Shown piece by piece: positions 43,339-55,836 of a stretch of DNA of 64,000 nucleotides. Numbering within the stretch: the first letter of the stretch is position 1; the number at the start of each line of letters is the position of its first letter. The position numbers were made by a program, and so were the translations under genes. The stretch comes from a virus. The stretch lies in the IMG/VR virus record IMGVR_UViG_3300037245_003639. One strand, 5' to 3'. The notes beneath the pieces were generated by a model. It had not been told where the DNA came from and ran no database searches. It worked only from the letters and a program-made list of their open reading frames with translations.

Positions 43339-43967
43339 GTAGTATCTGGTTCTGGTTTTTGTCCGCAATCTTAGGAAGTTTCTTCTTATATAACATCTTC
43401 CATGAGAAGACCCTCGGAGCAACGTCCTCCCTGATTATCTACGGGTTGGTCATCTGTTTCTTCGGCAATTTCAATGTCTTTAGTTGGGTTTGGGATAACC
43501 CCTGGGAATTGCTGAAATGGGGCGGTTCTTACGTTATCCTTGGCGTTTTATGGTCCATACTTCGTTGGTATCTGTTCAATACCAAAGTCAAATATGCTTT
43601 TAACGAAATCAAAACCGCTTTCAAAAAAGAGCATAACATAACAGGCGACGTTCCCAATGAACTAAGGGGGGAGTGGAGACGCTATCTCAATGGCCGTCAT
43701 GACGAATGGGACAGCGTTGCCCGCCATTACGAATGGACGGCTCCGGTTACTATTCGCTCTTTGGAAGATATCATTCCAGCACCAAGGAAGTACCGCCGCT
43801 CCATCATATGTTGGATGACGTTCTGGCCGCTATCAGTTATCTTCTTCCTGTTACATGACTTCATCACTGGGCTTTTCGAAAGATTGTACCAAGCTCTGTC
43901 GAACGTTTATGGCATGATCACGAAATCAGTTTTTGGCAAGATAACCGACGACTTGAAAGAAGTATGA
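43314..43967 (+). CDS. polytopic membrane protein
   Basis: At least 4 hydrophobic helices; Trp/Phe-rich. Confidence 0.5.
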   Translation: MFWELFIVGSIWFWFLSAILGSFFLYNIFHEKTLGATSSLIIYGLVICFFGNFNVFSWVWDNPWELLKWGGSYVILGVLWSILRWYLFNTKVKYAFNEIKTAFKKEHNITGDVPNELRGEWRRYLNGRHDEWDSVARHYEWTAPVTIRSLEDIIPAPRKYRRSIICWMTFWPLSVIFFLLHDFITGLFERLYQALSNVYGMITKSVFGKITDDLKEV

Positions 43968-44042
43968 ATTTCTTTGTATTTCTCTTGACAGGATTTTCAA
44001 TCACGTTACACTGCAACCAGTAATTTTGCTTGGAGAAACGAC

Positions 44043-44546
44043 ATGAAGATTTCTGGATACAAGTTACGAGAAGCCCTTCGTAATAAGCGAACATTACGTG
44101 ATGTCCTGGCTACTCGTTTCAACGAGACGCTTTTCCAGTTTGAAGCTGGCGCGAAGCCACAAGACGTGGCTAAGGGCTTTCAGGAAGCGGATCAAGCAGT
44201 TGCTATGTTGGAGGAAGCTCAGCAATTCTACAACCAACAAGTCAACGTCGAGGTTGAAGGCAAGACGATGACGTTGGTAAGGGCCATCAAGTTGGTTGGT
44301 GGCGCGGGCCGTCTGGAGAAGATGTGGCGAAGTGCAGCCACAGATACAGGCCGCGACCGCTACAGCAGCTATCGTGAAATGTCCCGGAAATCTGATGAAG
44401 AACATGCACGAAGAATGGTTTCTGTAGACGATGCAATCGAACTTGCTCAAAAGGCGGCTCGCTTTGCCAGCGCCTTGCGGAGTGCGATTGCAGAAGCTAA
44501 TGCTCGGAAAGTGGAACTGAACTTAAGTCCTGATCTGATCTCTTGA
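44043..44546 (+). CDS. hypothetical protein
   Basis: 167 aa, alpha-helical and charged. Confidence 0.5.
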   Translation: MKISGYKLREALRNKRTLRDVLATRFNETLFQFEAGAKPQDVAKGFQEADQAVAMLEEAQQFYNQQVNVEVEGKTMTLVRAIKLVGGAGRLEKMWRSAATDTGRDRYSSYREMSRKSDEEHARRMVSVDDAIELAQKAARFASALRSAIAEANARKVELNLSPDLIS

Positions 44547-44790
44547 GAGAGGATCGGGGCGAGGGCAGAGGAATGTAACATGTTACTGTCCGGACACGGA
44601 ATGGCAAGGAAAACGACATCCGAGGAATGCATCCTGGTAGCTCAAGCCGCTGATCCCATAGTTGGAAATGGGCGGTATAACAACCCAGACCCGGTAATGC
44701 GTCTAGCCAAGCTGTGAGCTATTCTTCTGCCCGCTTAAACAAGAGCCGTCCGAGGAAACTCGGGCGGCTCTCTGTAATTTCCTGGGGAGG

Positions 44791-45405
44791 TTAAACTGTT
44801 ATCGTTATATTCCCATTCGGGGCTTGATAAGGGTCAGAGTTCGTGACGGTAGCTCCAGCCGCAGTCGCAGCAATATTGGTTGTACCAACATAACCCGTAT
44901 CAGAATTAGTCACTGTTGATCCAGCCGCAGTTATCACTTCTGTTGCTTTCGCGTTGTTCGTGACGTTGATAGTAAAAGATCCCTGGGTGGCTGCGTTAAG
45001 CCAAGCATCATCACTTAGTTGCGTGATCGCATCAGGAGATTGATATCTTTTGTCTCGTGTTTTGAAGTCAACCCAAGGGGTCCACCATCCTGCGTCTCGC
45101 CTGCATCGTGCTTGAAAGTTAGTTCTGAATGGCAGAATAATGACTGCGCTTGAAACCGACCTTGAAATAACTTGTGGCCAAGCTGGCTCATTTGGACCAC
45201 CTGTCGGACCTGCTGTTTGAGTTGTTAGGGCTGTTGAGCGGCTTATCGTTACCGATCCATCCGCATAGGGAACCTGGTCTCTACGCCTAACCATATATTC
45301 AACATTTCCGGTTACGAACCCGGAGTTTATTGTTACCGCATCGCCTCTTGCTGTGCCGGCAGTATTTCTAGTGGGGTTGTCTCCAACAGTTACTGTAACA
45401 GCCAT
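44791..45405 (-). CDS. Thr/Ser/Asn-rich protein (possible structural or fibre-like)
   Basis: 204 aa, low hydrophobicity, repeated TVTNSD segments. Confidence 0.45.
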   Translation of the reverse strand: MAVTVTVGDNPTRNTAGTARGDAVTINSGFVTGNVEYMVRRRDQVPYADGSVTISRSTALTTQTAGPTGGPNEPAWPQVISRSVSSAVIILPFRTNFQARCRRDAGWWTPWVDFKTRDKRYQSPDAITQLSDDAWLNAATQGSFTINVTNNAKATEVITAAGSTVTNSDTGYVGTTNIAATAAGATVTNSDPYQAPNGNITITV

Positions 45406-45534
45406 GATTGCCTCCTAGCAAAGAACCACTCTTGATTTCCTCGCAAGTTTCTGGGATTCCTTCCGCAAAACTGAACAAAATACATTTATAGAATTCGATT
45501 TGACAACCGCGAAAACCTTTATTAGACTTAGAGT

Positions 45535-45738
45535 GTGATTGGTAAGGAGACCTGCGTGTTTTATTGTGACCTGTGCCGCATCAAACGTAACTGGCCCATC
45601 TCGGGATTTGAATCTCATGGTCCCTGTGAGATTTGTGGGAAAGTAGCGTTATGCTACGATCTCCCATCATCGATGTTACCTATTCCTCCCGTTTCTGATG
45701 ATCCTGAGTCAAAAAAGCAGGGTGGAACGAACGAATAA
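45535..45738 (+). CDS. small zinc-finger protein
   Basis: CVFYCDLC...GPCEICG. Confidence 0.35.
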   Translation: MIGKETCVFYCDLCRIKRNWPISGFESHGPCEICGKVALCYDLPSSMLPIPPVSDDPESKKQGGTNE

Positions 45739-45755
45739 GCCAAGAATAGATATCG

Positions 45756-46097
45756 TTGCATTTGAGTATGGAGACACACACTATGAGAATCCAAGAATGG
45801 ATGATCTATATTTGCGATGGTGGTCTTGCAGCAATTCATGGCGAATTCTATCCGATTACCGAATATTATTGCCCAGATCTAAAACTTGCAGTGAACTCGC
45901 AAACCTTCTTTCTTTCTGGGACTAACAGATATGAGACATCAAACGGGGACACAGAATTCAATCATCCTCAACCAGAACTAGTCAAAGAGATTGAAATCTC
46001 AAATGAATTAGCGAATTTAATGCGCATAATGAAAGACGGGGCTCGTGGGTATGATGTATTTAAGAAACAAATGTTTCCTGACAAGAGTGAGAGATAA
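45756..46097 (+). CDS. hypothetical protein
   Basis: 113-aa ORF. Confidence 0.4.
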   Translation: MHLSMETHTMRIQEWMIYICDGGLAAIHGEFYPITEYYCPDLKLAVNSQTFFLSGTNRYETSNGDTEFNHPQPELVKEIEISNELANLMRIMKDGARGYDVFKKQMFPDKSER

Positions 46098-46099
46098 AG

Positions 46100-46282
46100 A
46101 TGTTGGTGCTTTCAAGAAAAGTTGATGAAAAGATCATTATCGGTGATAATGAGATTTGTGTAACTGTCGTTGATATTCGCGGCGACAAGGTAAGACTTGG
46201 CATCGAGGCTTCGCCTAACATTCAGATTCATCGAGAAGAGATCTTCCGGGCCATTCAGAAACAAAAACCTGTTGGGATTTGA
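46100..46282 (+). CDS. csrA: carbon storage regulator CsrA
   Basis: MLVLSRKVDEKIIIGDNEICVTVVDIRGDKVRLGIEASPNIQIHREEIFRAIQ aligns along its full length with E. coli CsrA [48 protein letters not shown]. Confidence 0.85.
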   Translation: MLVLSRKVDEKIIIGDNEICVTVVDIRGDKVRLGIEASPNIQIHREEIFRAIQKQKPVGI

Positions 46283-46396
46283 AATGGCCAAGAAAAAAGA
46301 TATTCCTACCGCAGCACAATTGCGCATATATTCGATTTGGTATCCGCCCGCGTGGGCAAGTTCATTCGGCCGATGCTCGGCCACAGGAGACTCATC

Positions 46397-47386
46397 ATGA
46401 AAGATTACAGTAAGCGGAAAGGCTTCACGCTCATCGAGTTGCTGGTGGTGGTGGCTATCATAGCACTGCTCATCTCCATCTTGCTGCCATCGCTGGCTCG
46501 CGCAAAGGAGCAAGCCCGCATTGCCAAGTGCCTGGCCAACCAGCGCAACATCATGCAGTCCTCGGTCAGTTATGTTATGGACAACCAGAGCGCCGTCTTC
46601 GCGTTCCCTTGGAACGTGTATATCGAGGGCGAACAGCCGCGCCACGACCTTGCAACGGAGTTCATTTGGGGTGGCGGTGTTCCCGATCGCCGTCGAGGAG
46701 AATGGGATCCCACGTTTGGCGAAAATCCCGCCGGACCGGCAAGAACCGACACCTATTGGATCCGACCGATCCACCGACCCATGAACAAATACCTCGACGC
46801 GCAGGTCACCTGGGACCACCCCGAGCGCGTCAAACCCAACCAGATGCGGCACAAGATTCCGATGGATCTGCCTGATTACTTCAAATGTCCTTCAGATAAG
46901 TCGGCGGGCGTGCCGATGGCCGGAGCCACTGGTATCGCCTTCGATGCCGACACTCCATTTCTCACCTGGGAGTGGTGGGGCACGAGTTATCCAATCAACT
47001 GGTACTGGGCGTATTGTTTTTACCCGCCCGCACAACGCCTGATTGGGAGCGCTACTGGCGGACCCGAGGGCGTGCTCGACGGCTCGCGTCACAAGCAGCT
47101 TCTCAAGAGCAAGGAGGTCTCGGGTGCTGCCGAGTGGATCATGTTCTACGAGAACCAGATGAACTTCGCGATGGAGGGAGCCCGCCCGAGAGGAGCACCG
47201 GATGGCGAACCGCGAATCGTCACCGGCTGGCACCGGCAGGAGAACATGCACGCTGCCGCATTCTTCGACGGGCACGCCAAGTATGGCTACTTCGACACGA
47301 CCTACATTGACGGCCCCGCCTGGACTACCTGGCCCAGCCGCAACCAGTGGATGGGCACACCATCGGAACCGTACATCGACCAGTAA
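46397..47386 (+). CDS. type II secretion pseudopilin-like protein (prepilin N-terminal methylation domain + DUF1559)
   Basis: GFTLIELLVVVAIIALLISILLPSL prepilin signal; C-terminal AAFFDGHAKY (H-x9-DG-type DUF1559 motif); markedly higher GC (about 60%) than its surroundings. Confidence 0.7.
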   Translation: MKDYSKRKGFTLIELLVVVAIIALLISILLPSLARAKEQARIAKCLANQRNIMQSSVSYVMDNQSAVFAFPWNVYIEGEQPRHDLATEFIWGGGVPDRRRGEWDPTFGENPAGPARTDTYWIRPIHRPMNKYLDAQVTWDHPERVKPNQMRHKIPMDLPDYFKCPSDKSAGVPMAGATGIAFDADTPFLTWEWWGTSYPINWYWAYCFYPPAQRLIGSATGGPEGVLDGSRHKQLLKSKEVSGAAEWIMFYENQMNFAMEGARPRGAPDGEPRIVTGWHRQENMHAAAFFDGHAKYGYFDTTYIDGPAWTTWPSRNQWMGTPSEPYIDQ

Positions 47387-47399
47387 GTCAGTCCGGGCC

Positions 47400-48990
47400 A
47401 GATTGACAAGTAACAGATTTTGGGAGCGATTACGGAGACAATTTGCATTTCAACAAGCAAAAATTGCTTGTTTTCCTCGGGTTGGTTTATGCAAATTCCG
47501 AGAATATCGTTGATTTTCGTTTGACACGGCGGATTTCTGTGGTATACTACCTTTAGTGATAAACACTACAAAGTAAATAACGGGAAAGACTGGCTAGCTT
47601 CTTTCCCCTCCGGGAGCACCGGGACCGGCGAAAGCCCCCTGGTGCCCTTTTTTTTTGCGGGAGGGGTTTCGAGAGGAGAGCATCGGGTACCTATGGTTCC
47701 TGGTGCCCTCTTTTTTTGTTCGCCATAGGAGGGGGACTCAGAATCTGAGTATAATGTACTGGACGAATGATTCAGTCTCTATCTTCCAGCCGACCAGCAG
47801 TCTTTCCACCGCATGTGGGCATCATAGGGCTGTTAGTTCGTAGGGGAGCTGGCAGATAGGTAAGAGCGGGCAGCAGTTAGGCGACGGCTCTGCCCGCTCA
47901 CTATATATACGCGCTCCCCCAAAAATCAGTTCTGAGCATTCCTAAAGCCCGAATCGGAAAGGACTTGTAAAAAATCACGAAAACCGCCCAATCCGCTTGC
48001 AATGATTTCTGATTGTGGTATACTCCCCCTATCAAGTTGAGAGTAACAAACGGAACGAAACAAAACGATCTTTCAAAAGTAAATAGTGATGAATCCCAAC
48101 CGCAAGCCGACAGGCTTGTGGGGTTTCCAACAGCAGAAATGCTCAAGGGAACTACAGTCAGTCCGTGGGAAACCGACAGGAAACTGGAGACAGTGACCTG
48201 CGGGTACAAAAGCCCAAACTACTCAACGGGTTAGGTGCTGACAAAGCTGACAGCAATGTTAGTGGCGACAGTGACGATGAAGACGAAATTCCAGCAGCGA
48301 TAATATCAAGTTGGTTGGGAGTCTGATTCGGGAACTCACGGCGGGCTTCGGAATTAGGATGGCGTCGATATAAGACTGCCTAGACAAGCAATCGATCACG
48401 GTCGATTGTGGACGGGTTAGGATGAACAAGACGCTCACCTGAGTAGCAAAAAGCGGGAAACGATGCCTGCCGCGAGCGGGTACCAGCAAAAGTTGCACGG
48501 GTAGTCCTAGTTGTCTGCGGGATAGGGTTGATTGCCTTTTGTAGCAGACGATCAACACCCCCTCCTGAATAAGGAATAGGGGCTGTCGAGCCTCGGATAG
48601 CAGGTTGAGCCTAGCGGATATACAACTATTCGCTTAGAGACGACGGAGATGCTTTACTTCGATATCAAATTGAGCCAGGTCGGTATCCATCTGCCGCAAG
48701 TATCGGGACTACGGGCAACCCAAAAGGTAGCCACGAGAAACGAATATGAACGACGGAGGGACCGGAATGAGTCGCGCTTCAAGGTAAACTATTTAGCAGT
48801 GGTCACAGCAAAACTGTGAAGAGTGGAATGCCTCGGAGAGTGCTACTATAAAGGTGACAGGGATTCAGGTTGTTGCTCCGATACCTATCGGGACTTGATT
48901 AATCTCTTGACCCAGACGTGACGGAGTAAGAAACTTCCACTCGGCCCCGGCCCCAGTTGGTAACAACTGAGCCGGGGCTTTTTTTTTGCG
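47400..48990 (+). ncRNA. about 1.6-kb ORF-poor region with internal promoters and terminators; candidate structured non-coding RNA locus
   Basis: No ORF over 75 aa on + and only weak ones on -. Extended -10 boxes TGTGGTATACT at 47531 and 48003, GAGTATAATG at 47747. Intrinsic terminators near 47636..47660, 47702..47722 and 48943..48990 (GCCCCGGCCCC..GAGCCGGGGC + T9). Confidence 0.4.
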
Positions 48991-49013
48991 CGAGACAAAC
49001 CGTATAATAGCAA

Positions 49014-49877
49014 ATGCGTTATGCGTTCTTAACCAATGTGTTTCAGTGGGGACATAGAGGCGGGTCACAAAGTCGGGCTCGCAATATGGAGACCATGTTG
49101 AAGCGACATGCAACCTTCAGCTACAAAGTAGTTAAAAAAGATCACAGACAATTTCTTGATTCGCATCTTATAGATGTAGTTCATATACAATCGAACAATA
49201 AACTGGTCAACCTAGCCATGGACCGGAATATGACAATTATTGTCGGCCCGAACATGTGTTGGAAACAAGCTCCAAAAAAACTGCTTTCATACCCCCGTTT
49301 ACTAAGTGCGGTTATACAGCGCCCCGATCCATTACCCAAGAAACTCAAGCCAACATGGGAGGACCATATCAAATATTTCCCAGCTTTTGTAGACGAAAAA
49401 TTCTTCTGTCCTTCAGACTCTCAAAAAACAATTGATGTTTTGACCATAGGGAAATCGTTTTATTATGACCGCTATGAAACGAACTTAAAGAAAATACATA
49501 CACACATCAAAAAGATGGGATTGCGTCATAAATACTTGAAACGCTATTCTTTACGGGAATTCAGGGATGCTCTCAATCAATCCAGAATTCTATTGTTCCC
49601 CAGCCCGAAGGAAGCAGGTGCAACTCTTTGTCATGCTCTTCTGGAGTGCAGCATGATGAATATCCCGTTTATTGGGCTGAAAAGTGTTGTAATTGAGAGA
49701 GAAAACGAGTATCATCTTAGCAGGGGATTAGGAGCAAGCACGACAGATGAAATGGCAGAGTTTGCCAGAGACATGATTCAGAACTCTGGAGATTACTGTC
49801 CAAGAAAGTGGACGTTGGAACGATATTCAACAAAAGCAGCATACCAGCGTCTAACAGATATTTTGGATGAAACATGA
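49014..49877 (+). CDS. glycosyltransferase (GT-B, family 1/4-like)
   Basis: C-terminal ILLFPSPKEAGATLCHALLECSMMNIPFIG fits the GT1/GT4 E-x7-E-like nucleotide-sugar-binding region. Confidence 0.5.
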   Translation: MRYAFLTNVFQWGHRGGSQSRARNMETMLKRHATFSYKVVKKDHRQFLDSHLIDVVHIQSNNKLVNLAMDRNMTIIVGPNMCWKQAPKKLLSYPRLLSAVIQRPDPLPKKLKPTWEDHIKYFPAFVDEKFFCPSDSQKTIDVLTIGKSFYYDRYETNLKKIHTHIKKMGLRHKYLKRYSLREFRDALNQSRILLFPSPKEAGATLCHALLECSMMNIPFIGLKSVVIERENEYHLSRGLGASTTDEMAEFARDMIQNSGDYCPRKWTLERYSTKAAYQRLTDILDET

Positions 49878-50545
49878 TTGAGACATTTGTCGTTAATCTA
49901 TATAGAGAACCATATGACACCTATGTAGGACGTGCAGGCAAAGGGCAGTTAGGCTATTTTGGGAATCCTTTCACGGGGATGTCCCGCACCGAAAGTATTG
50001 CTCTATTCCGTAAGCATTTTTATGAACGGCTGAAATCAGATCCACTCTTCAACCGTAGAGTCCGTTCACTAAAAGGCAAGATCCTAGGTTGCTTTTGTAA
50101 ACCGAAAGCATGTCACGCAGATATTATCGTTGAATATCTCAATGGGCTTCCTGAAGAAAAGCCAATTCGATTAGCCGTGGTAGGGTCGCGCAGTTTCCGA
50201 GACTGCAAATTCATGAAGGAAATCCTTCAATGGTATGATGTCCAACAGATCATCAGCGGGGGAGCGCATGGGGCTGATCAGCACGCTGCCACTTATGCTA
50301 ACGAACATGGCATACCTTTGAAAGAACTCAAACCCGACTGGGGATATGGCAAATCCGCAGGTTTCCGTCGCAATGAACAGATAGTTGACGCCTGTGATGA
50401 AGTCGTAGCATTCTGGGATGGAAAATCGCGTGGAACAAAACATACCATCAATCTTGCGGAAGAGAAAGGCAAACCTGTATCGATTTATTGGCCGCAGCCG
50501 TCCGTTAAAACATCCATTCCTCATGACGCAATATCAATATTATAA
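49874..50545 (+). CDS. DUF4326-like N-terminal domain fused to DUF2493/SLOG (YspA/LOG-like) domain
   Basis: N-terminal YVGRAGKGQLGYFGNPF...GCFCKPKACHADII; C-terminal RLAVVGSRSF...IISGGAHGADQHAA...VVAFWDGKSRGTKHTI. Confidence 0.5.
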   Translation: MIETFVVNLYREPYDTYVGRAGKGQLGYFGNPFTGMSRTESIALFRKHFYERLKSDPLFNRRVRSLKGKILGCFCKPKACHADIIVEYLNGLPEEKPIRLAVVGSRSFRDCKFMKEILQWYDVQQIISGGAHGADQHAATYANEHGIPLKELKPDWGYGKSAGFRRNEQIVDACDEVVAFWDGKSRGTKHTINLAEEKGKPVSIYWPQPSVKTSIPHDAISIL

Positions 50546-50598
50546 GGAGCGGCTTGACATGACTTCTAAGTGTTTATATATGTCTATAGGAGACCGAT

Positions 50599-52044
50599 AT
50601 GGATTGGAATGATCCCGAGGCAGTAAAAGAATATAATCTGCGGTTCAAGCAGTGGCGTGATCATCGTGCAGAAACTATTGCCACCTTTCCTGAGAGCCCC
50701 AGAGATTTGGGTAGTCAGCATAAGTCAGATCTAAAAGATGATCAAACGGTCAAAGCTATCACTGTTTGCTTCAGTGATATCGAAGGCCGATTCCACATGT
50801 TGGACTATGACAAAGATTATATTCTCGCTTCAGACGATAATCTCACGTTTGATGGTTCCTCTATTAGGGGCTTCACGAACCAAAATGAAAGTGATCTGCG
50901 TCTCGCCTTGGATTGGAGCGCCTTCTATATCGCTCCTCCGTCAGTGTTCGGCCCTGGCAAAGTGATGGTTTTTAGTGAGATCCGAGATAAAGACGGGCAC
51001 CTTTATGACTGTGATATACGGGCACAACTGAAGTTATTTTTGAAGGAAGAGAGTCAACTCGGCAGATTCGTCAATGTTGCCGCTGAAATCGAGGGATTCC
51101 TGTTCGAAGGTCAAAATGCCGAAAAGATTTTCTATCAGAGTCCCGAATTCCACTGTGTAACTACCGGCGGTTATTTTAATACTCTGCCGTCATCCCAACT
51201 GCGTAGTTTCATCGACAAGGCAGCAGAAGCACAACGAGCCCTGGGGTTTGAGAACGAGAAGGATCACCCTGAAGTTGCTCCAGCGCAGTTTGAGTTGAAT
51301 TGGAAATACACTGAGGCTCTAATTGCTGCGGATCAGATTCAGCTTTATAAGATGGTTTGCCGAGTGGTGGCAGATCGCATGGGTTATACAGCATCGTTTC
51401 TTCCTAAACCCCTGGCGGGGGTAAACGGGAATGGCATGCATACCAATATTTCGTTCCACCAGACGGTGCTTAATAAACCAACGAAAAACCTAATGTACGA
51501 CAAGGCTACAAAAGATGGTATTTCTGAGTGGGCTCGGAAATTCGCGGACGGTATCCTGCGGAGAGCTAAAGATATATGTTTGGTTCTAAATCCCAGCGTC
51601 AATGCATACCGTCGCCTCGATCCGCATTACGAGGCTCCTAATGAGATTTTTGCTTCCGCAGTGGATAGGGGAGCGATGATACGTTTCCCACTGTGCAATG
51701 AGAAGTCTGCCCGAGTTGAGGTAAGATCCGTATCTCCTGATGCTAACCCTTATCTATTATTGTTGGTTCTTCTGAAGGCTGGTCTGCGAGGTCAACAGGA
51801 GGAACTAATACCAACGGACAGGCCCTGTGAGTTACTTCCTCAGAATATCCATGAGGCTATCTGTGGATTCAACGATAACATGTTCATTACCGAGGCATTG
51901 GGTCTCGATGCCAGAAGAAAATATGCTGACTGGAAAGAGGCATCTGCGGATCGTTGCCCAAAACTTCTGGGCAAGAATATAAAACCCGCGGAAATAATGT
52001 TCCACCATGAGGTTACTAACCAGCATTTGTGGCAGATGTTCTAA
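50599..52044 (+). CDS. glutamine synthetase family protein (GlnA-like / gamma-glutamyl ligase)
   Basis: KPLAGVNGNGMHTNISF (GS ATP-binding signature region) and SVNAYRRLDPHYEAPNEIF (GS NxYKRLxPGYEAP region). Confidence 0.75.
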   Translation: MDWNDPEAVKEYNLRFKQWRDHRAETIATFPESPRDLGSQHKSDLKDDQTVKAITVCFSDIEGRFHMLDYDKDYILASDDNLTFDGSSIRGFTNQNESDLRLALDWSAFYIAPPSVFGPGKVMVFSEIRDKDGHLYDCDIRAQLKLFLKEESQLGRFVNVAAEIEGFLFEGQNAEKIFYQSPEFHCVTTGGYFNTLPSSQLRSFIDKAAEAQRALGFENEKDHPEVAPAQFELNWKYTEALIAADQIQLYKMVCRVVADRMGYTASFLPKPLAGVNGNGMHTNISFHQTVLNKPTKNLMYDKATKDGISEWARKFADGILRRAKDICLVLNPSVNAYRRLDPHYEAPNEIFASAVDRGAMIRFPLCNEKSARVEVRSVSPDANPYLLLLVLLKAGLRGQQEELIPTDRPCELLPQNIHEAICGFNDNMFITEALGLDARRKYADWKEASADRCPKLLGKNIKPAEIMFHHEVTNQHLWQMF

Positions 52045-52067
52045 AGGAATAACCTGTCCAACAACGA

Positions 52068-52571
52068 ATGAAAGATATGCCTTCCGTAATAACAATTGGA
52101 ACTCCCGGTTCTCCAGATGCATTAGGTGGAGGAACTACTGCCGACGAGACGACGACGGTTCCCGTCATTCCGCCTCAGCAGGGAGAATCTGAGGCTGAAT
52201 CTCGATTGGCCTCTGATGAGAGTACAGGCATCAGTACGGGAAGACCACGATTTCAGGATGAAGATGAACTCAACCTTGTCACTCGACAGGCTATTCAAAT
52301 GGAAGCGGTCAGGCTAATTAGAGTGGAGCAGCAAGTTGTCAACCAAAGTGAGCCGCAGTCAGCCACATCATCGAATGAAGTTGTCGCCCAGGCAACTAAT
52401 AGAACTTATGTATCACAGCAACGCATAGACGATGCCGTGAGAGCATTACAGAAACTACAACGCTCTTGTAATCATATTTATGACAAAGTTTCACGGAGAT
52501 GTCTATACTGCACAAAACATAGAAATTCGCATGTTTATGATACGACCAGAATGATTTTGAATCAAAGTTGA
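52068..52571 (+). CDS. hypothetical protein with Thr/Ser-rich N-terminus
   Basis: 167-aa ORF. Confidence 0.4.
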   Translation: MKDMPSVITIGTPGSPDALGGGTTADETTTVPVIPPQQGESEAESRLASDESTGISTGRPRFQDEDELNLVTRQAIQMEAVRLIRVEQQVVNQSEPQSATSSNEVVAQATNRTYVSQQRIDDAVRALQKLQRSCNHIYDKVSRRCLYCTKHRNSHVYDTTRMILNQS

Positions 52572-53548
52572 AACACACTGGAGTTGATATGTTAGATGCA
52601 TTTGCCAAATATCTGGTAGACGAACGTCATCTGTCTTCAAAGACAGAACGTTTCTACCGAGTGGACGTTCAACACTTCAAACGTTTTCTTGACAACGATG
52701 TATTGCCAACCCGGCAAAATTCTCCCCAGACCAAAGATGTTTTGGATGTTACGAGAGATGATATTCAACTCTTTGCTGATTATCTGACGCGCGACTACAA
52801 ACCCCGCACAATCAATCGCAAGATTGCTGCGCTCGGTGCCTTCTACCGCTTTCTCATCAAGAAGGGTTTTCTGGAGAAATCTCCTATTCATCACGAAAAG
52901 AAACCGGGTGGAGGGTTGGATATCAGAAAACCCCGCGTTCCCAAGGAAGATCTGGTTCATATATCGGATGATAATATCAAGATGTTACTTGAATCCATAG
53001 ACCCAGATAGTAAACTGAGAAAGTTGCGAGACAAAGCCCTTTACAGTCTGATGGCCCTAGCTGGGTTAAAAGCTCCCGAACTACAGTCTATGACTTTGGG
53101 AGACGTGGATATCACTGACAAAACTGTCAAAATAATCCGTAGGAAAGAGTTAGTTTTTATTCCTGTGGACCATGAGTTACTTTCTGTAATCGAAACATAT
53201 TACTTCGCTCGTTTGGACAACAACGACAGCCTCACCGATTCTGACTTTTTGTTTATCAACAAACATGGCAAAAGTCTAAGTTGTCGCAGTATGCGCCGCA
53301 ATCTGGTAAGATACGCGCTGGAAGCAGGTATCCGAGTTAATCCCTCTCAGTTGCGTCATTCCTTTGCCATCAACGCAGTTCGCCAAGGGGTAGATTTGAC
53401 GGTATTGCAGCAACAGCTTGGACACCTTGCTAAGACAACAATGAAAGCTTACAAAATTCCACAGGATATGATTAATCTAGGAGACGCGGCCCCTATCGAG
53501 GAGGTCGAACCCATTGCGGAGGTGACGACTTGTGAGTACGTGGGATAA
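52568..53548 (+). CDS. int: tyrosine recombinase/integrase (XerC/D-like)
   Basis: N-terminal SAM-like core-binding domain (FYRVDVQHFKRFL); C-terminal LRHSFAINAVRQGVDL...LGHLAKTTMKAYKI (R-HxxR-Y catalytic pattern). Confidence 0.75.
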   Translation: MKHTGVDMLDAFAKYLVDERHLSSKTERFYRVDVQHFKRFLDNDVLPTRQNSPQTKDVLDVTRDDIQLFADYLTRDYKPRTINRKIAALGAFYRFLIKKGFLEKSPIHHEKKPGGGLDIRKPRVPKEDLVHISDDNIKMLLESIDPDSKLRKLRDKALYSLMALAGLKAPELQSMTLGDVDITDKTVKIIRRKELVFIPVDHELLSVIETYYFARLDNNDSLTDSDFLFINKHGKSLSCRSMRRNLVRYALEAGIRVNPSQLRHSFAINAVRQGVDLTVLQQQLGHLAKTTMKAYKIPQDMINLGDAAPIEEVEPIAEVTTCEYVG

Positions 53549-54744: not shown

Positions 54745-55836
54745 TTGAAGATGCAAGAAAGAGAATTCGCGGAGAAATACTGTATCTTTCGGTGCCGGTC
54801 TGGCTCCCATGCTTATGGTACGTCCTTGCCTACGTCCGACGTAGACACCCGGGGTGTATTTATCGCGCCCCCGTCCCATATCCTCAGTTGCGTTCATAAA
54901 ATTGAGCAGGCTGAGGACAAGGCGACCGATACCGTCATCTTCGAGCTGAAGAAATTCATGAACATGGCAGCCAACTGTAACCCGAATATCATCGAGTTGC
55001 TGTTTACTGACGAGCGAAATATACTGTTCATGCATGATACTTTCCGCCGAATCCGAGAGCATGCTCATCTATTCTTATCCAGAAAGGCGAAGCATACTTT
55101 CAGCGGATATGCTATGTCTCAGTTACAGCGTATCAAAGGACATAACAAGTGGATCAACAACCCGCAGCCCGAACAAACTCCGAGCATGGCGGATTTCTGT
55201 CGGTTCATTGGTACGAATGGAGCCGTTCGTCGTGATAATATGGCCATTCGCGCTTTGTCCAAGGTTTGTTTCTTGGCAAAGACTTTTGGTGCAACCCAAT
55301 TTAGGGTTTACCATTCGCCTGAGTTTTTCGCAGAAAAAGTTGGTTTCTTCAACGAAAACGAAACTCAGCCGAAATATGTCAATATTGATGATGAAACGTT
55401 AGCTCGCAGGGCAACGTATAAGGGTTTCTTGTGGATTAACATAGACGAGTTCAAAACTCTCTACAAAGAATGGAGCCAGTATTGGGAATGGAAAAACAAT
55501 CGCAATGAAGTTCGGGCTGAGTTAGAAGCACGGCATGGTTACGATACCAAACATGCTATGCATCTTGTTCGCCTAATGCGTATGGCACAGGAAATTCTTA
55601 CCGAAGGTAAGGTTATTGTTCGTCGTCCTGATGCTGCTGAGTTGCTTCGTATTCGTGCTGGTGAATTCGATTACGAATGGCTGCTCAACTGGGCTAAAGA
55701 AATGGATGAGAAACTCAACGAAGCCGACAAGAAGTCCGAACTTCAGTTTGCTGCTGATTATGAGGGAATTGATGCTCTCTACAGGGAAACAGTTCTTCAG
55801 TATTGGAGAGAACACAAACTCCTTAACTATGCATAA
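54745..55836 (+). CDS. nucleotidyltransferase-fold protein (Pol-beta superfamily)
   Basis: RCRSGSHAYGTSLPTSDVDTRGVFIAP matches the GS-x9-13-DxD Pol-beta-type NTase motif; RBS GGAGTTGAAGATG. Confidence 0.55.
   Translation: MKMQEREFAEKYCIFRCRSGSHAYGTSLPTSDVDTRGVFIAPPSHILSCVHKIEQAEDKATDTVIFELKKFMNMAANCNPNIIELLFTDERNILFMHDTFRRIREHAHLFLSRKAKHTFSGYAMSQLQRIKGHNKWINNPQPEQTPSMADFCRFIGTNGAVRRDNMAIRALSKVCFLAKTFGATQFRVYHSPEFFAEKVGFFNENETQPKYVNIDDETLARRATYKGFLWINIDEFKTLYKEWSQYWEWKNNRNEVRAELEARHGYDTKHAMHLVRLMRMAQEILTEGKVIVRRPDAAELLRIRAGEFDYEWLLNWAKEMDEKLNEADKKSELQFAADYEGIDALYRETVLQYWREHKLLNYA

Follow-up and report, generated by a model that had tools for sequence, protein, structure and literature searches.

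A gene-free stretch in a tRNA-rich phage genome

We analyzed a 64,000-nucleotide stretch of viral DNA (the window), which carries a gene-free stretch of ~1.6 kb (47390–49013) between a pilin-like gene and the gene of a 287-aa protein (49014–49877). CsrA, a DUF4326-SLOG protein, and GlnA are encoded nearby (Table 1). The longest ORFs that the ORF scan found inside the gene-free stretch are 73 aa on the + strand and 102 aa on the − strand. None of the ORFs of at least 56 aa in 47400–48990 (both strands) matched Pfam at E ≤ 1. The ORFs of the gene-free stretch were absent as called genes from a collection of 15 billion proteins, in which the neighboring CsrA is present, and recoding any single stop codon opened no long frame. 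ORF lengths, Pfam, the protein collection, and stop recoding thus agree with a preliminary description of this DNA, which had seen no credible ORF in 47400–48990.

Table 1. Features of the gene-free stretch and of nearby genes (window coordinates).
Feature	Position	Strand	Remarks
CsrA gene, 60 aa	46100–46282	+	PF02599, E = 4.9e-22
Prepilin-type (N_methyl) gene	46337–47386		G+C 57–62% versus ~45% for the genome
Promoter P1	47521–47548	+	TTGACA-16-TATACT, TG-extended −10, 11/12 matches
Small RNA, ~105 nt	~47555–47657	+	start inferred from the −10 element
T1 terminator	stem 47612–47648, then U9	+	fold of the region
T2 terminator hairpin	47672–47718	+	3′ arm and T-run 95% identical to those of T1
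Candidate third unit	47747–47900	+	TATAAT box 47750–47755, then structured ~140 nt
Promoter P2	47997–48024	+	TTGCAA-16-TATACT, TG-extended −10
Large structured RNA, ~955 nt	~48031–48988	+	P2 to T3
5′ leader hairpin of the large RNA	48037–48076	+	predicted fold
Conserved 3′ domain	48567–48942	+	alignment with L001
Long irregular hairpin	48676–48769	+	3 compensatory pairs
Hairpin CACAG/CUGUG	48804–48818	+	A-U to G-C in L001
Hairpin domain	48874–48928	+	within the conserved 3′ domain
Invariant blocks	48632–48662, 48702–48715, 48726–48744, 48850–48867, 48918–48932	+	alignment with L001
T3 intrinsic terminator	48943–48988	+	9-bp G+C stem, apical extension, U9; pairing probability 0.98
CCA-adding nucleotidyltransferase gene	54745–55836		large-phage type protein

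The 287-aa protein recurs with 100% identity on a 403,172-bp JGI contig, and the window therefore belongs to a metagenomic contig of ~403 kb. Its phage character is apparent from PHROG matches, from the size of this contig, and from 44 tRNA genes, which the Rfam scan and ARAGORN place in several clusters between 1940 and 27594. Yet the nearest of them ends at 27594, 20 kb from the RNA genes described below, so the earlier placement of the region next to the tRNA-rich region was loose. Nearly all amino acids are represented among the tRNA genes, many of them twice; no suppressor tRNA was found among the 44. The window also codes for an ADP-ribosylglycohydrolase and a tyrosine recombinase, typical of large phages.

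The CsrA gene is encoded on the same strand as the RNAs, with P1 1.25 kb and the large RNA 1.7 kb downstream of it. In IMG/VR, relatives of this CsrA (28–68% identity) occur on 46 viral contigs, some of them >200 kb and one with two copies. Downstream of the 287-aa gene, positions 49874–53548 hold a DUF4326-SLOG (YspA-like) fusion, glutamine synthetase, a 167-aa ORF, and the tyrosine recombinase. The order of these genes is kept in relatives L001–L003, downstream of a variable RNA slot.

The closest relatives of the prepilin-type gene are chromosomal Phycisphaerae genes that adjoin mfd (65% amino acid and 69% nucleotide identity). Its G+C content and these relatives point to a recent uptake from what is probably the host lineage. 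The gene would thus be a recent host-to-phage transfer, pointing to a Planctomycetota host, and the phage probably infects Phycisphaerae. Two Phycisphaerae-type chromosomal loci have only the pilin gene in common with the window, and the match breaks off right at the pilin stop codon. Because it stops there, the RNAs were not brought in with the pilin gene, and we rejected a host origin for them. Just upstream of P1, a 9-nt inverted repeat, AATTTGCAT / ATGCAAATT (47440–47498), flanks a terminator-like hairpin (47451–47472); repeat and hairpin could be an operator or the terminator of the pilin gene.

The arrangement of the locus recurs in independent assemblies. One of them (L020) is 100% identical over 46766–48246 and reproduces the left junction, assemblies from other samples match 43959–46455 exactly, and the right junction of the RNA region is reproduced in relative L001. 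Thus, the arrangement is not an assembly artefact. Assemblies L020, L001, and L002 break inside the large RNA gene, at 48246, 48567, and ~48749, respectively, and the first ~15 nt of L002 are unlike those of L001. These breaks may be due to strain microdiversity or low coverage.

Promoters, terminators, and transcription units

P1 is among a handful of sites with at least 11 of 12 matches across the 64 kb. It has the 11-mer TGTGGTATACT in common with P2 (47538 and 48014); these are the only two copies in 64 kb, and at least two copies arise in 6 of 100 shuffles. Both extended −10 elements had been noticed in the preliminary description, but at 47531 and 48003 (6–11 nt off), and the first had been given as TTGTGG where the actual letters are CTGTGG. 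P1 and P2 also have the spacer motif GATTTCTG in common, shifted by 3 nt between them. Shortly downstream of both promoters we found the 10-mer AAAGTAAATA (47570–47579 and 48076–48085), which occurs nowhere else in the 64 kb; two copies arise in 2 of 100 shuffles. Its presence solely downstream of the two promoters suggests that the units are under shared regulation or have a common binding site. The heptamer TAGTGAT adjoins AAAGTAAATA at both places, in reversed order.

Three terminators punctuate the stretch. The two similar terminators seen earlier are there: CCTGGTGCCC plus a T-run occurs at 47638–47657 and 47699–47718 as 95% identical copies, each of which closes a long stem. The strong T9 terminator expected at 48943 is also present (T3, GGCCCCGGC...GCCGGGGC + T9) and ends at 48988; in L001 its stem base is conserved and its apical part covaries. 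A simple terminator scan missed T1, T2, and T3 because their loops are larger than its limit. P1 and P2 are predicted host-type sigma-70 promoters that would drive two transcripts. Taken together, the ORF checks, P1/P2, and T1–T3 bear out the proposal of a non-coding region with separately promoted and terminated units.

The first unit, from P1 to T1, had been put at about 110 nt and measures ~105 nt (~47555–47657). It comprises a 5′ hairpin, an A-rich linker with AAAGUAAAUA, a second hairpin, and T1, and it folds with −37.7 kcal/mol (z = −3.5, single sequence). Rfam gave no match for it; the best, BjrC68 at E = 0.1, was below threshold. The hairpin GGCGAAAGCC, formerly assigned to the long transcript, belongs to the terminator of this small RNA. 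A "second short unit" had been proposed behind it. The promoter scan finds no promoter between T1 and T2, however, and a duplicated terminator hairpin is a better reading of 47672–47718 than a gene of its own.

Farther downstream, the GAGTATAATG box is located where it had been reported (47747–47756), but it has no usable −35 and was not called by the promoter scan. The candidate third unit that follows folds with −57.3 kcal/mol (z = −2.7, single sequence; 47747–47900) and ends in a strong 14-bp hairpin (47864–47900) that is not followed by a U-tract. With neither a convincing −35 nor a U-tract, a unit downstream of GAGTATAATG is not supported, and it is uncertain whether 47747–47900 is a separate transcript.

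Could these units be cis-regulatory? P1-T1/T2 and P2-T3 might be strong promoters with terminated leaders, through which a phage antiterminator reads into the + strand operon downstream (287-aa gene, DUF4326-SLOG, GlnA, and others). In that case the 955 nt would serve as a long structured leader. In lambda, PR′-6S RNA-tR′ is a promoter with a terminated leader that is read through by antitermination. In favor of such an arrangement are the near-consensus promoters with short terminated transcripts and tandem terminators behind them, the spacer sequence common to P1 and P2, and the restriction of AAAGTAAATA to the two transcripts. Moreover, the downstream genes are all on the same strand, and the 287-aa gene's own promoter is weak. 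On the other hand, the spacer motif is offset by 3 nt between the promoters, and no antiterminator gene was identified. Further evidence against such a leader comes from the relative described in the next section.

Folding and conservation of the large RNA

The second unit, from P2 to T3, is ~955 nt long (~48031–48988), close to the ~950-nt transcript proposed earlier. Folded as a single sequence at full length, it has a minimum free energy of −333.9 kcal/mol, and the + strand folds better than the − strand. A closing helix is predicted between UGAAUCCC (48090–48097) and GGGAUUCA (48860–48867) with a probability of 0.94; it would enclose a multi-domain body, almost the whole molecule. In the best fold, 48339–48346 pairs with 48465–48472 (probability 1.00), and GGCTTCGG and GCGGGAAACG...CCGC, previously described as hairpins, do not form local hairpins there. 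The RNA had also been called rich in GNRA/UUCG-type hairpins. We counted 5 GNRA hairpins versus 2.2 expected, a weak enrichment that 41 of 500 shuffles reached, and we dropped GNRA and UNCG hairpin enrichment as evidence.

The single-sequence fold z-score of the large RNA was −5.7 and −4.0 in two runs. Since coding segments used as controls (30800–31758 and 54800–55758) reach z values of ~−4.7, this score does not discriminate in this genome and we dropped it as evidence. The excess folding energy was greatest for the large RNA, −44 kcal/mol versus −27 or less in the controls.

We compared the RNA with that of the one relative found, contig SDBT01051178.1 (L001 and L009; re-assembled as L002) from assembly K1060, a deep-sea sediment assembly (PMC6401483). 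The relative's 287-aa protein is 72% identical to that of the window. L001 is cut inside the large RNA, and the comparison thus covers its first 421 nt against 48567–48988, that is, the 3′ 44% of the RNA in two lineages. Over these ~420 nt the nucleotide identity is 82%, versus 68–69% in the adjacent genes. Between the RNA terminator and the 287-aa gene, L001 also has an uncalled 108-aa ORF (433–759) with a zinc-ribbon-like CxxC...CxxC pattern, which is absent from the window.

The alignment shows indels of 1, 2, and 4 nt in the RNA and stop codons in nearly all frames of its ungapped blocks. Substitutions are spread evenly across the three codon positions in all six frames, with no codon periodicity. 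These indels, stops, and even substitutions argue against coding in the 3′ domain.

RNAalifold predicted 116 pairs in the 3′ domain, with 9 compensatory changes, 13 one-sided changes, and no broken pair. The tested structure is derived from the same two sequences that it is scored on; we therefore ran shuffle and slide controls. When columns were shuffled, the energy z was −6.7 and the mean number of compensatory changes was 4.1 (sd 1.7), 9 being reached in 1 of 200 shuffles; overall, the alignment-fold z of the RNA ranged from −5.6 to −6.7. Shuffling the 3′ partners never reproduced the observed value (0 of 500), and sliding the partners by 1–3 columns left 0–2 compensatory pairs. The reverse strand of the alignment folded with −85 kcal/mol versus −111 kcal/mol on the + strand. 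In four coding alignments of the same two genomes, z lay between −0.3 and −1.7 and compensatory changes showed no excess.

Support is strongest for the long irregular hairpin, the CACAG/CUGUG hairpin, and the terminator apex. Several blocks of 14–32 nt are invariant, and one of them (48850–48867) is the region of the 3′ strand of the predicted closing helix. As the alignment of the two lineages shows, at least the 3′ ~420 nt have a base-paired architecture under purifying selection. The earlier view of the ~950-nt unit as a conserved structured RNA thus holds for the 3′ domain, in its conservation (82% versus 68–69% for the flanks), compensatory excess, and lack of a coding signature. The preliminary description had named two findings that would jointly tell against it, an Rfam scan with no hit and a lack of conservation or covariation in relatives; the Rfam scan found nothing (see below), whereas conservation and covariation are present.

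These data bear on the leader hypothesis raised above. A leader of 955 nt that contains covarying helices and invariant blocks, and is better conserved than the genes that it would control, far exceeds the needs of known antitermination sites. In L001, moreover, an extra ORF and a TATAAT box stand between T3 and the 287-aa gene, and the RNA is therefore not coupled to that gene. We consider it improbable that the locus as a whole is a set of antiterminated leaders. For the small unit by itself, a promoter-proximal terminated leader under antitermination, as in lambda PR′, is a serious alternative: P1-T1/T2 may be such a leader.

The conservation above the flanking genes, together with substitutions that keep RNA pairing on one strand, also weighs against non-functional DNA (a decayed gene or spacer) and against a DNA-level element such as a replication origin with primer transcripts. 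Either of these would fit the length of the stretch, its lack of genes, its place in a variable accessory region, and the breaks of several independent assemblies within it. We found no repeats or iterons and no turn in GC skew, and we regard both as very unlikely.

RNA families, distribution, and proposed role

GOLLD and ROOL, whose loci typically lie in or beside tRNA islands, had been suggested as kin of the large RNA. At gathering thresholds, cmscan with Rfam 15 detected only tRNAs in the whole window. A permissive search of 47300–49100 on both strands (E up to 10) gave nothing better than E = 0.1, and its hits were terminator-shaped. These searches thus link the RNA to neither GOLLD nor ROOL nor any other Rfam family, and it is therefore not GOLLD, ROOL, HEARO, OLE, an intron, RNase P, 6S, tmRNA, or Csr/Rsm as currently modelled. 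ARAGORN found no tmRNA in the window, and no IscB, TnpB, IS110-type gene, reverse transcriptase, or interrupted host gene flanks the RNA. We rejected a HEARO or omega RNA because there is neither an IscB/TnpB/IS110-type neighbor nor an RNA model match. A group I or group II intron was likewise rejected: no model matches, the RNA is flanked by complete genes, and it is promoted and terminated on its own.

A very divergent member of one of these classes (GOLLD, ROOL, HEARO/omega RNA, OLE, group I/II intron, RNase P, or tmRNA) might escape the models. The ~950-nt length, the phage location, and the tRNA-rich genome do resemble GOLLD/ROOL loci (PMC12286853). However, no covariance model matched at gathering thresholds (window) or at E up to 10 (47300–49100), and the window offers no tmRNA, no IscB/TnpB/reverse transcriptase, and no interrupted gene. 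Such a hidden membership is extremely improbable. The large RNA is a new family, a member of none known, yet of the kind "large ornate phage RNA."

We wondered whether the nearby CsrA gene points to the function of the RNAs. CsrB, CsrC, RsmY, and RsmZ titrate CsrA through many GGA motifs displayed in loops, and the RNAs could be a CsrA (Rsm) sponge that titrates phage or host CsrA in this manner. CsrA is encoded close upstream on the same strand, GGA is modestly enriched on the + strand (26 in 968 nt, the window mean being 17 with an sd of 5 and the reverse-strand count 10), and GACGGAG is present three times. However, only 2 of the 26 GGA lie in hairpin loops of the minimum free energy fold, most having an unpaired probability near 0. 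A structure-free count of loop-capable GGA gave 19 versus 16.9 (sd 3.3) in shuffles, no excess. L001 lacks three of the GGA motifs, no CsrB, CsrC, or Rsm model matches at E up to 10, none of the 46 CsrA-encoding viral loci has a similar RNA, and the host-derived pilin gene stands between CsrA and the RNAs. A sponge is thus not supported by GGA counts, fold positions, the shuffle comparison, or conservation, and we hold it to be quite unlikely.

How widespread is the large RNA? By blastn, no GenBank phage matched it. IMG/VR, searched with three neighboring proteins or the alignment and with four DNA patterns, yielded no further copy, and a pattern scan of JGI metagenomes returned nothing beyond L001. 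The same kind of scan of GTDB gave nine chance matches with no wider similarity. With a translated frame over the conserved block as query, a library-wide HMMER search recovered only a spurious ORF of L001 and two repeat artefacts. A covariance model of 48598–48772, run on the window and 52 loci, recovered no sequence but its own. Other samples gave identical copies, which bring no variation.

Of the contigs that encode homologs of the 287-aa protein, L001 and L002 alone have the RNA. In its place, immediately upstream of the 287-aa gene, L003, L006, and L008 have a glycosyltransferase, IMPDH, or nucleoside-hydrolase gene, and L007 has a protein gene. As far as these searches reach, the large RNA appears rare and accessory. 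With a promoter and a terminator for each RNA unit and a slot that varies among relatives, the layout is that of a phage "moron," here made of RNA. We infer an accessory, moron-like cassette whose slot is taken by protein genes in other relatives.

Taken together, these results suggest that the locus is a small island of stand-alone genes for non-coding RNAs within a phage genome of ~403 kb that is rich in tRNA genes. P1 would drive the ~105-nt RNA, stopped by the tandem terminators, and P2 the ~955-nt RNA, stopped by T3. Transcription would be by the host polymerase, probably early in infection. The large RNA is not translated; it would fold into a closed multi-domain structure and, in this folded form, may act in trans in a structural or scaffold role, possibly in an RNA-protein or RNA-only assembly. 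That it is a genuine structured non-coding RNA gene is highly probable. A specific structural or scaffold role, argued by analogy, is a tentative proposal that could well be wrong. The explanation as a whole blends the reality of the RNA gene with the structural role, and we favor it with moderate confidence. A GOLLD/ROOL-like structural RNA would be the most likely function.

A bolder possibility is that the RNA is the founding member of a new giant "ornate" class of sediment Planctomycetota megaphages, working as an RNA machine or compartment during infection and forming, with the small RNA and CsrA, a module that seizes host post-transcriptional control. This is speculative, and we think it unlikely. 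If the RNA does belong to an ornate class, it would have a defined tertiary, possibly quaternary, architecture, as in GOLLD and ROOL. To our knowledge, few bacterial or phage RNAs exceed ~500 nt with extensive conserved structure and unknown function (GOLLD, ROOL, OLE, raiA, and formerly HEARO). Such large RNAs, once studied, proved unusual: an RNA nanocage, a membrane ribonucleoprotein, a nuclease guide. With a further family, the phenomenon would reach beyond Firmicutes-type phages, into little-studied phages of ~400 kb from deep-sediment and aquatic samples, probably living on Phycisphaerae. The ~955-nt RNA is a new, clearly delimited target for structural biologists. The strong host-type promoters, the phage CsrA, and the captured pilin gene hint at an early host-takeover cassette that is partly made of RNA.

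Among known systems, lambda 6S/PR′-tR′ resembles the small unit only, in its near-consensus promoter, ~100-nt transcript, and strong terminators upstream of same-strand genes. Here, however, the terminators are tandem, and the genes are separated from the small unit by a further promoter and the 955-nt structured RNA. CsrB, RsmY, and RsmZ are likewise stand-alone RNAs with a strong promoter, an intrinsic terminator, and CsrA encoded nearby. The RNA described here far exceeds them in length, contains long-range helices, and fits none of the family models; its GGA motifs are mostly inside helices and its loops are not enriched in them.

The closest likeness in kind is to the ornate phage RNAs. 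ROOL (rumen-originating, ornate, large) is also a phage-borne, large structured RNA with no known protein partner, and it is abundant. Our RNA differs in that it matches no ROOL model, is ~300–400 nt longer, and lacks the tRNA association. GOLLD exceeds 800 nt and is highly structured, non-coding, encoded by phages or prophages, and transcribed as its own unit, features that the RNA described here appears to share. In contrast to GOLLD, the RNA matches no Rfam model, its host lineage is probably Planctomycetota, and the nearest tRNA is 20 kb away. GOLLD and ROOL are phage-borne and very large, and they form homo-oligomeric, RNA-only cages (PMC12286853). The 3′ region is conserved in GOLLD (PMC12286853), and the 3′ region is also the part for which conservation was found here. 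Across the two lineages, these 3′ 420 nt have in common with structured non-coding RNAs in general a conservation above that of their neighbors, compensatory changes, and no coding signature.
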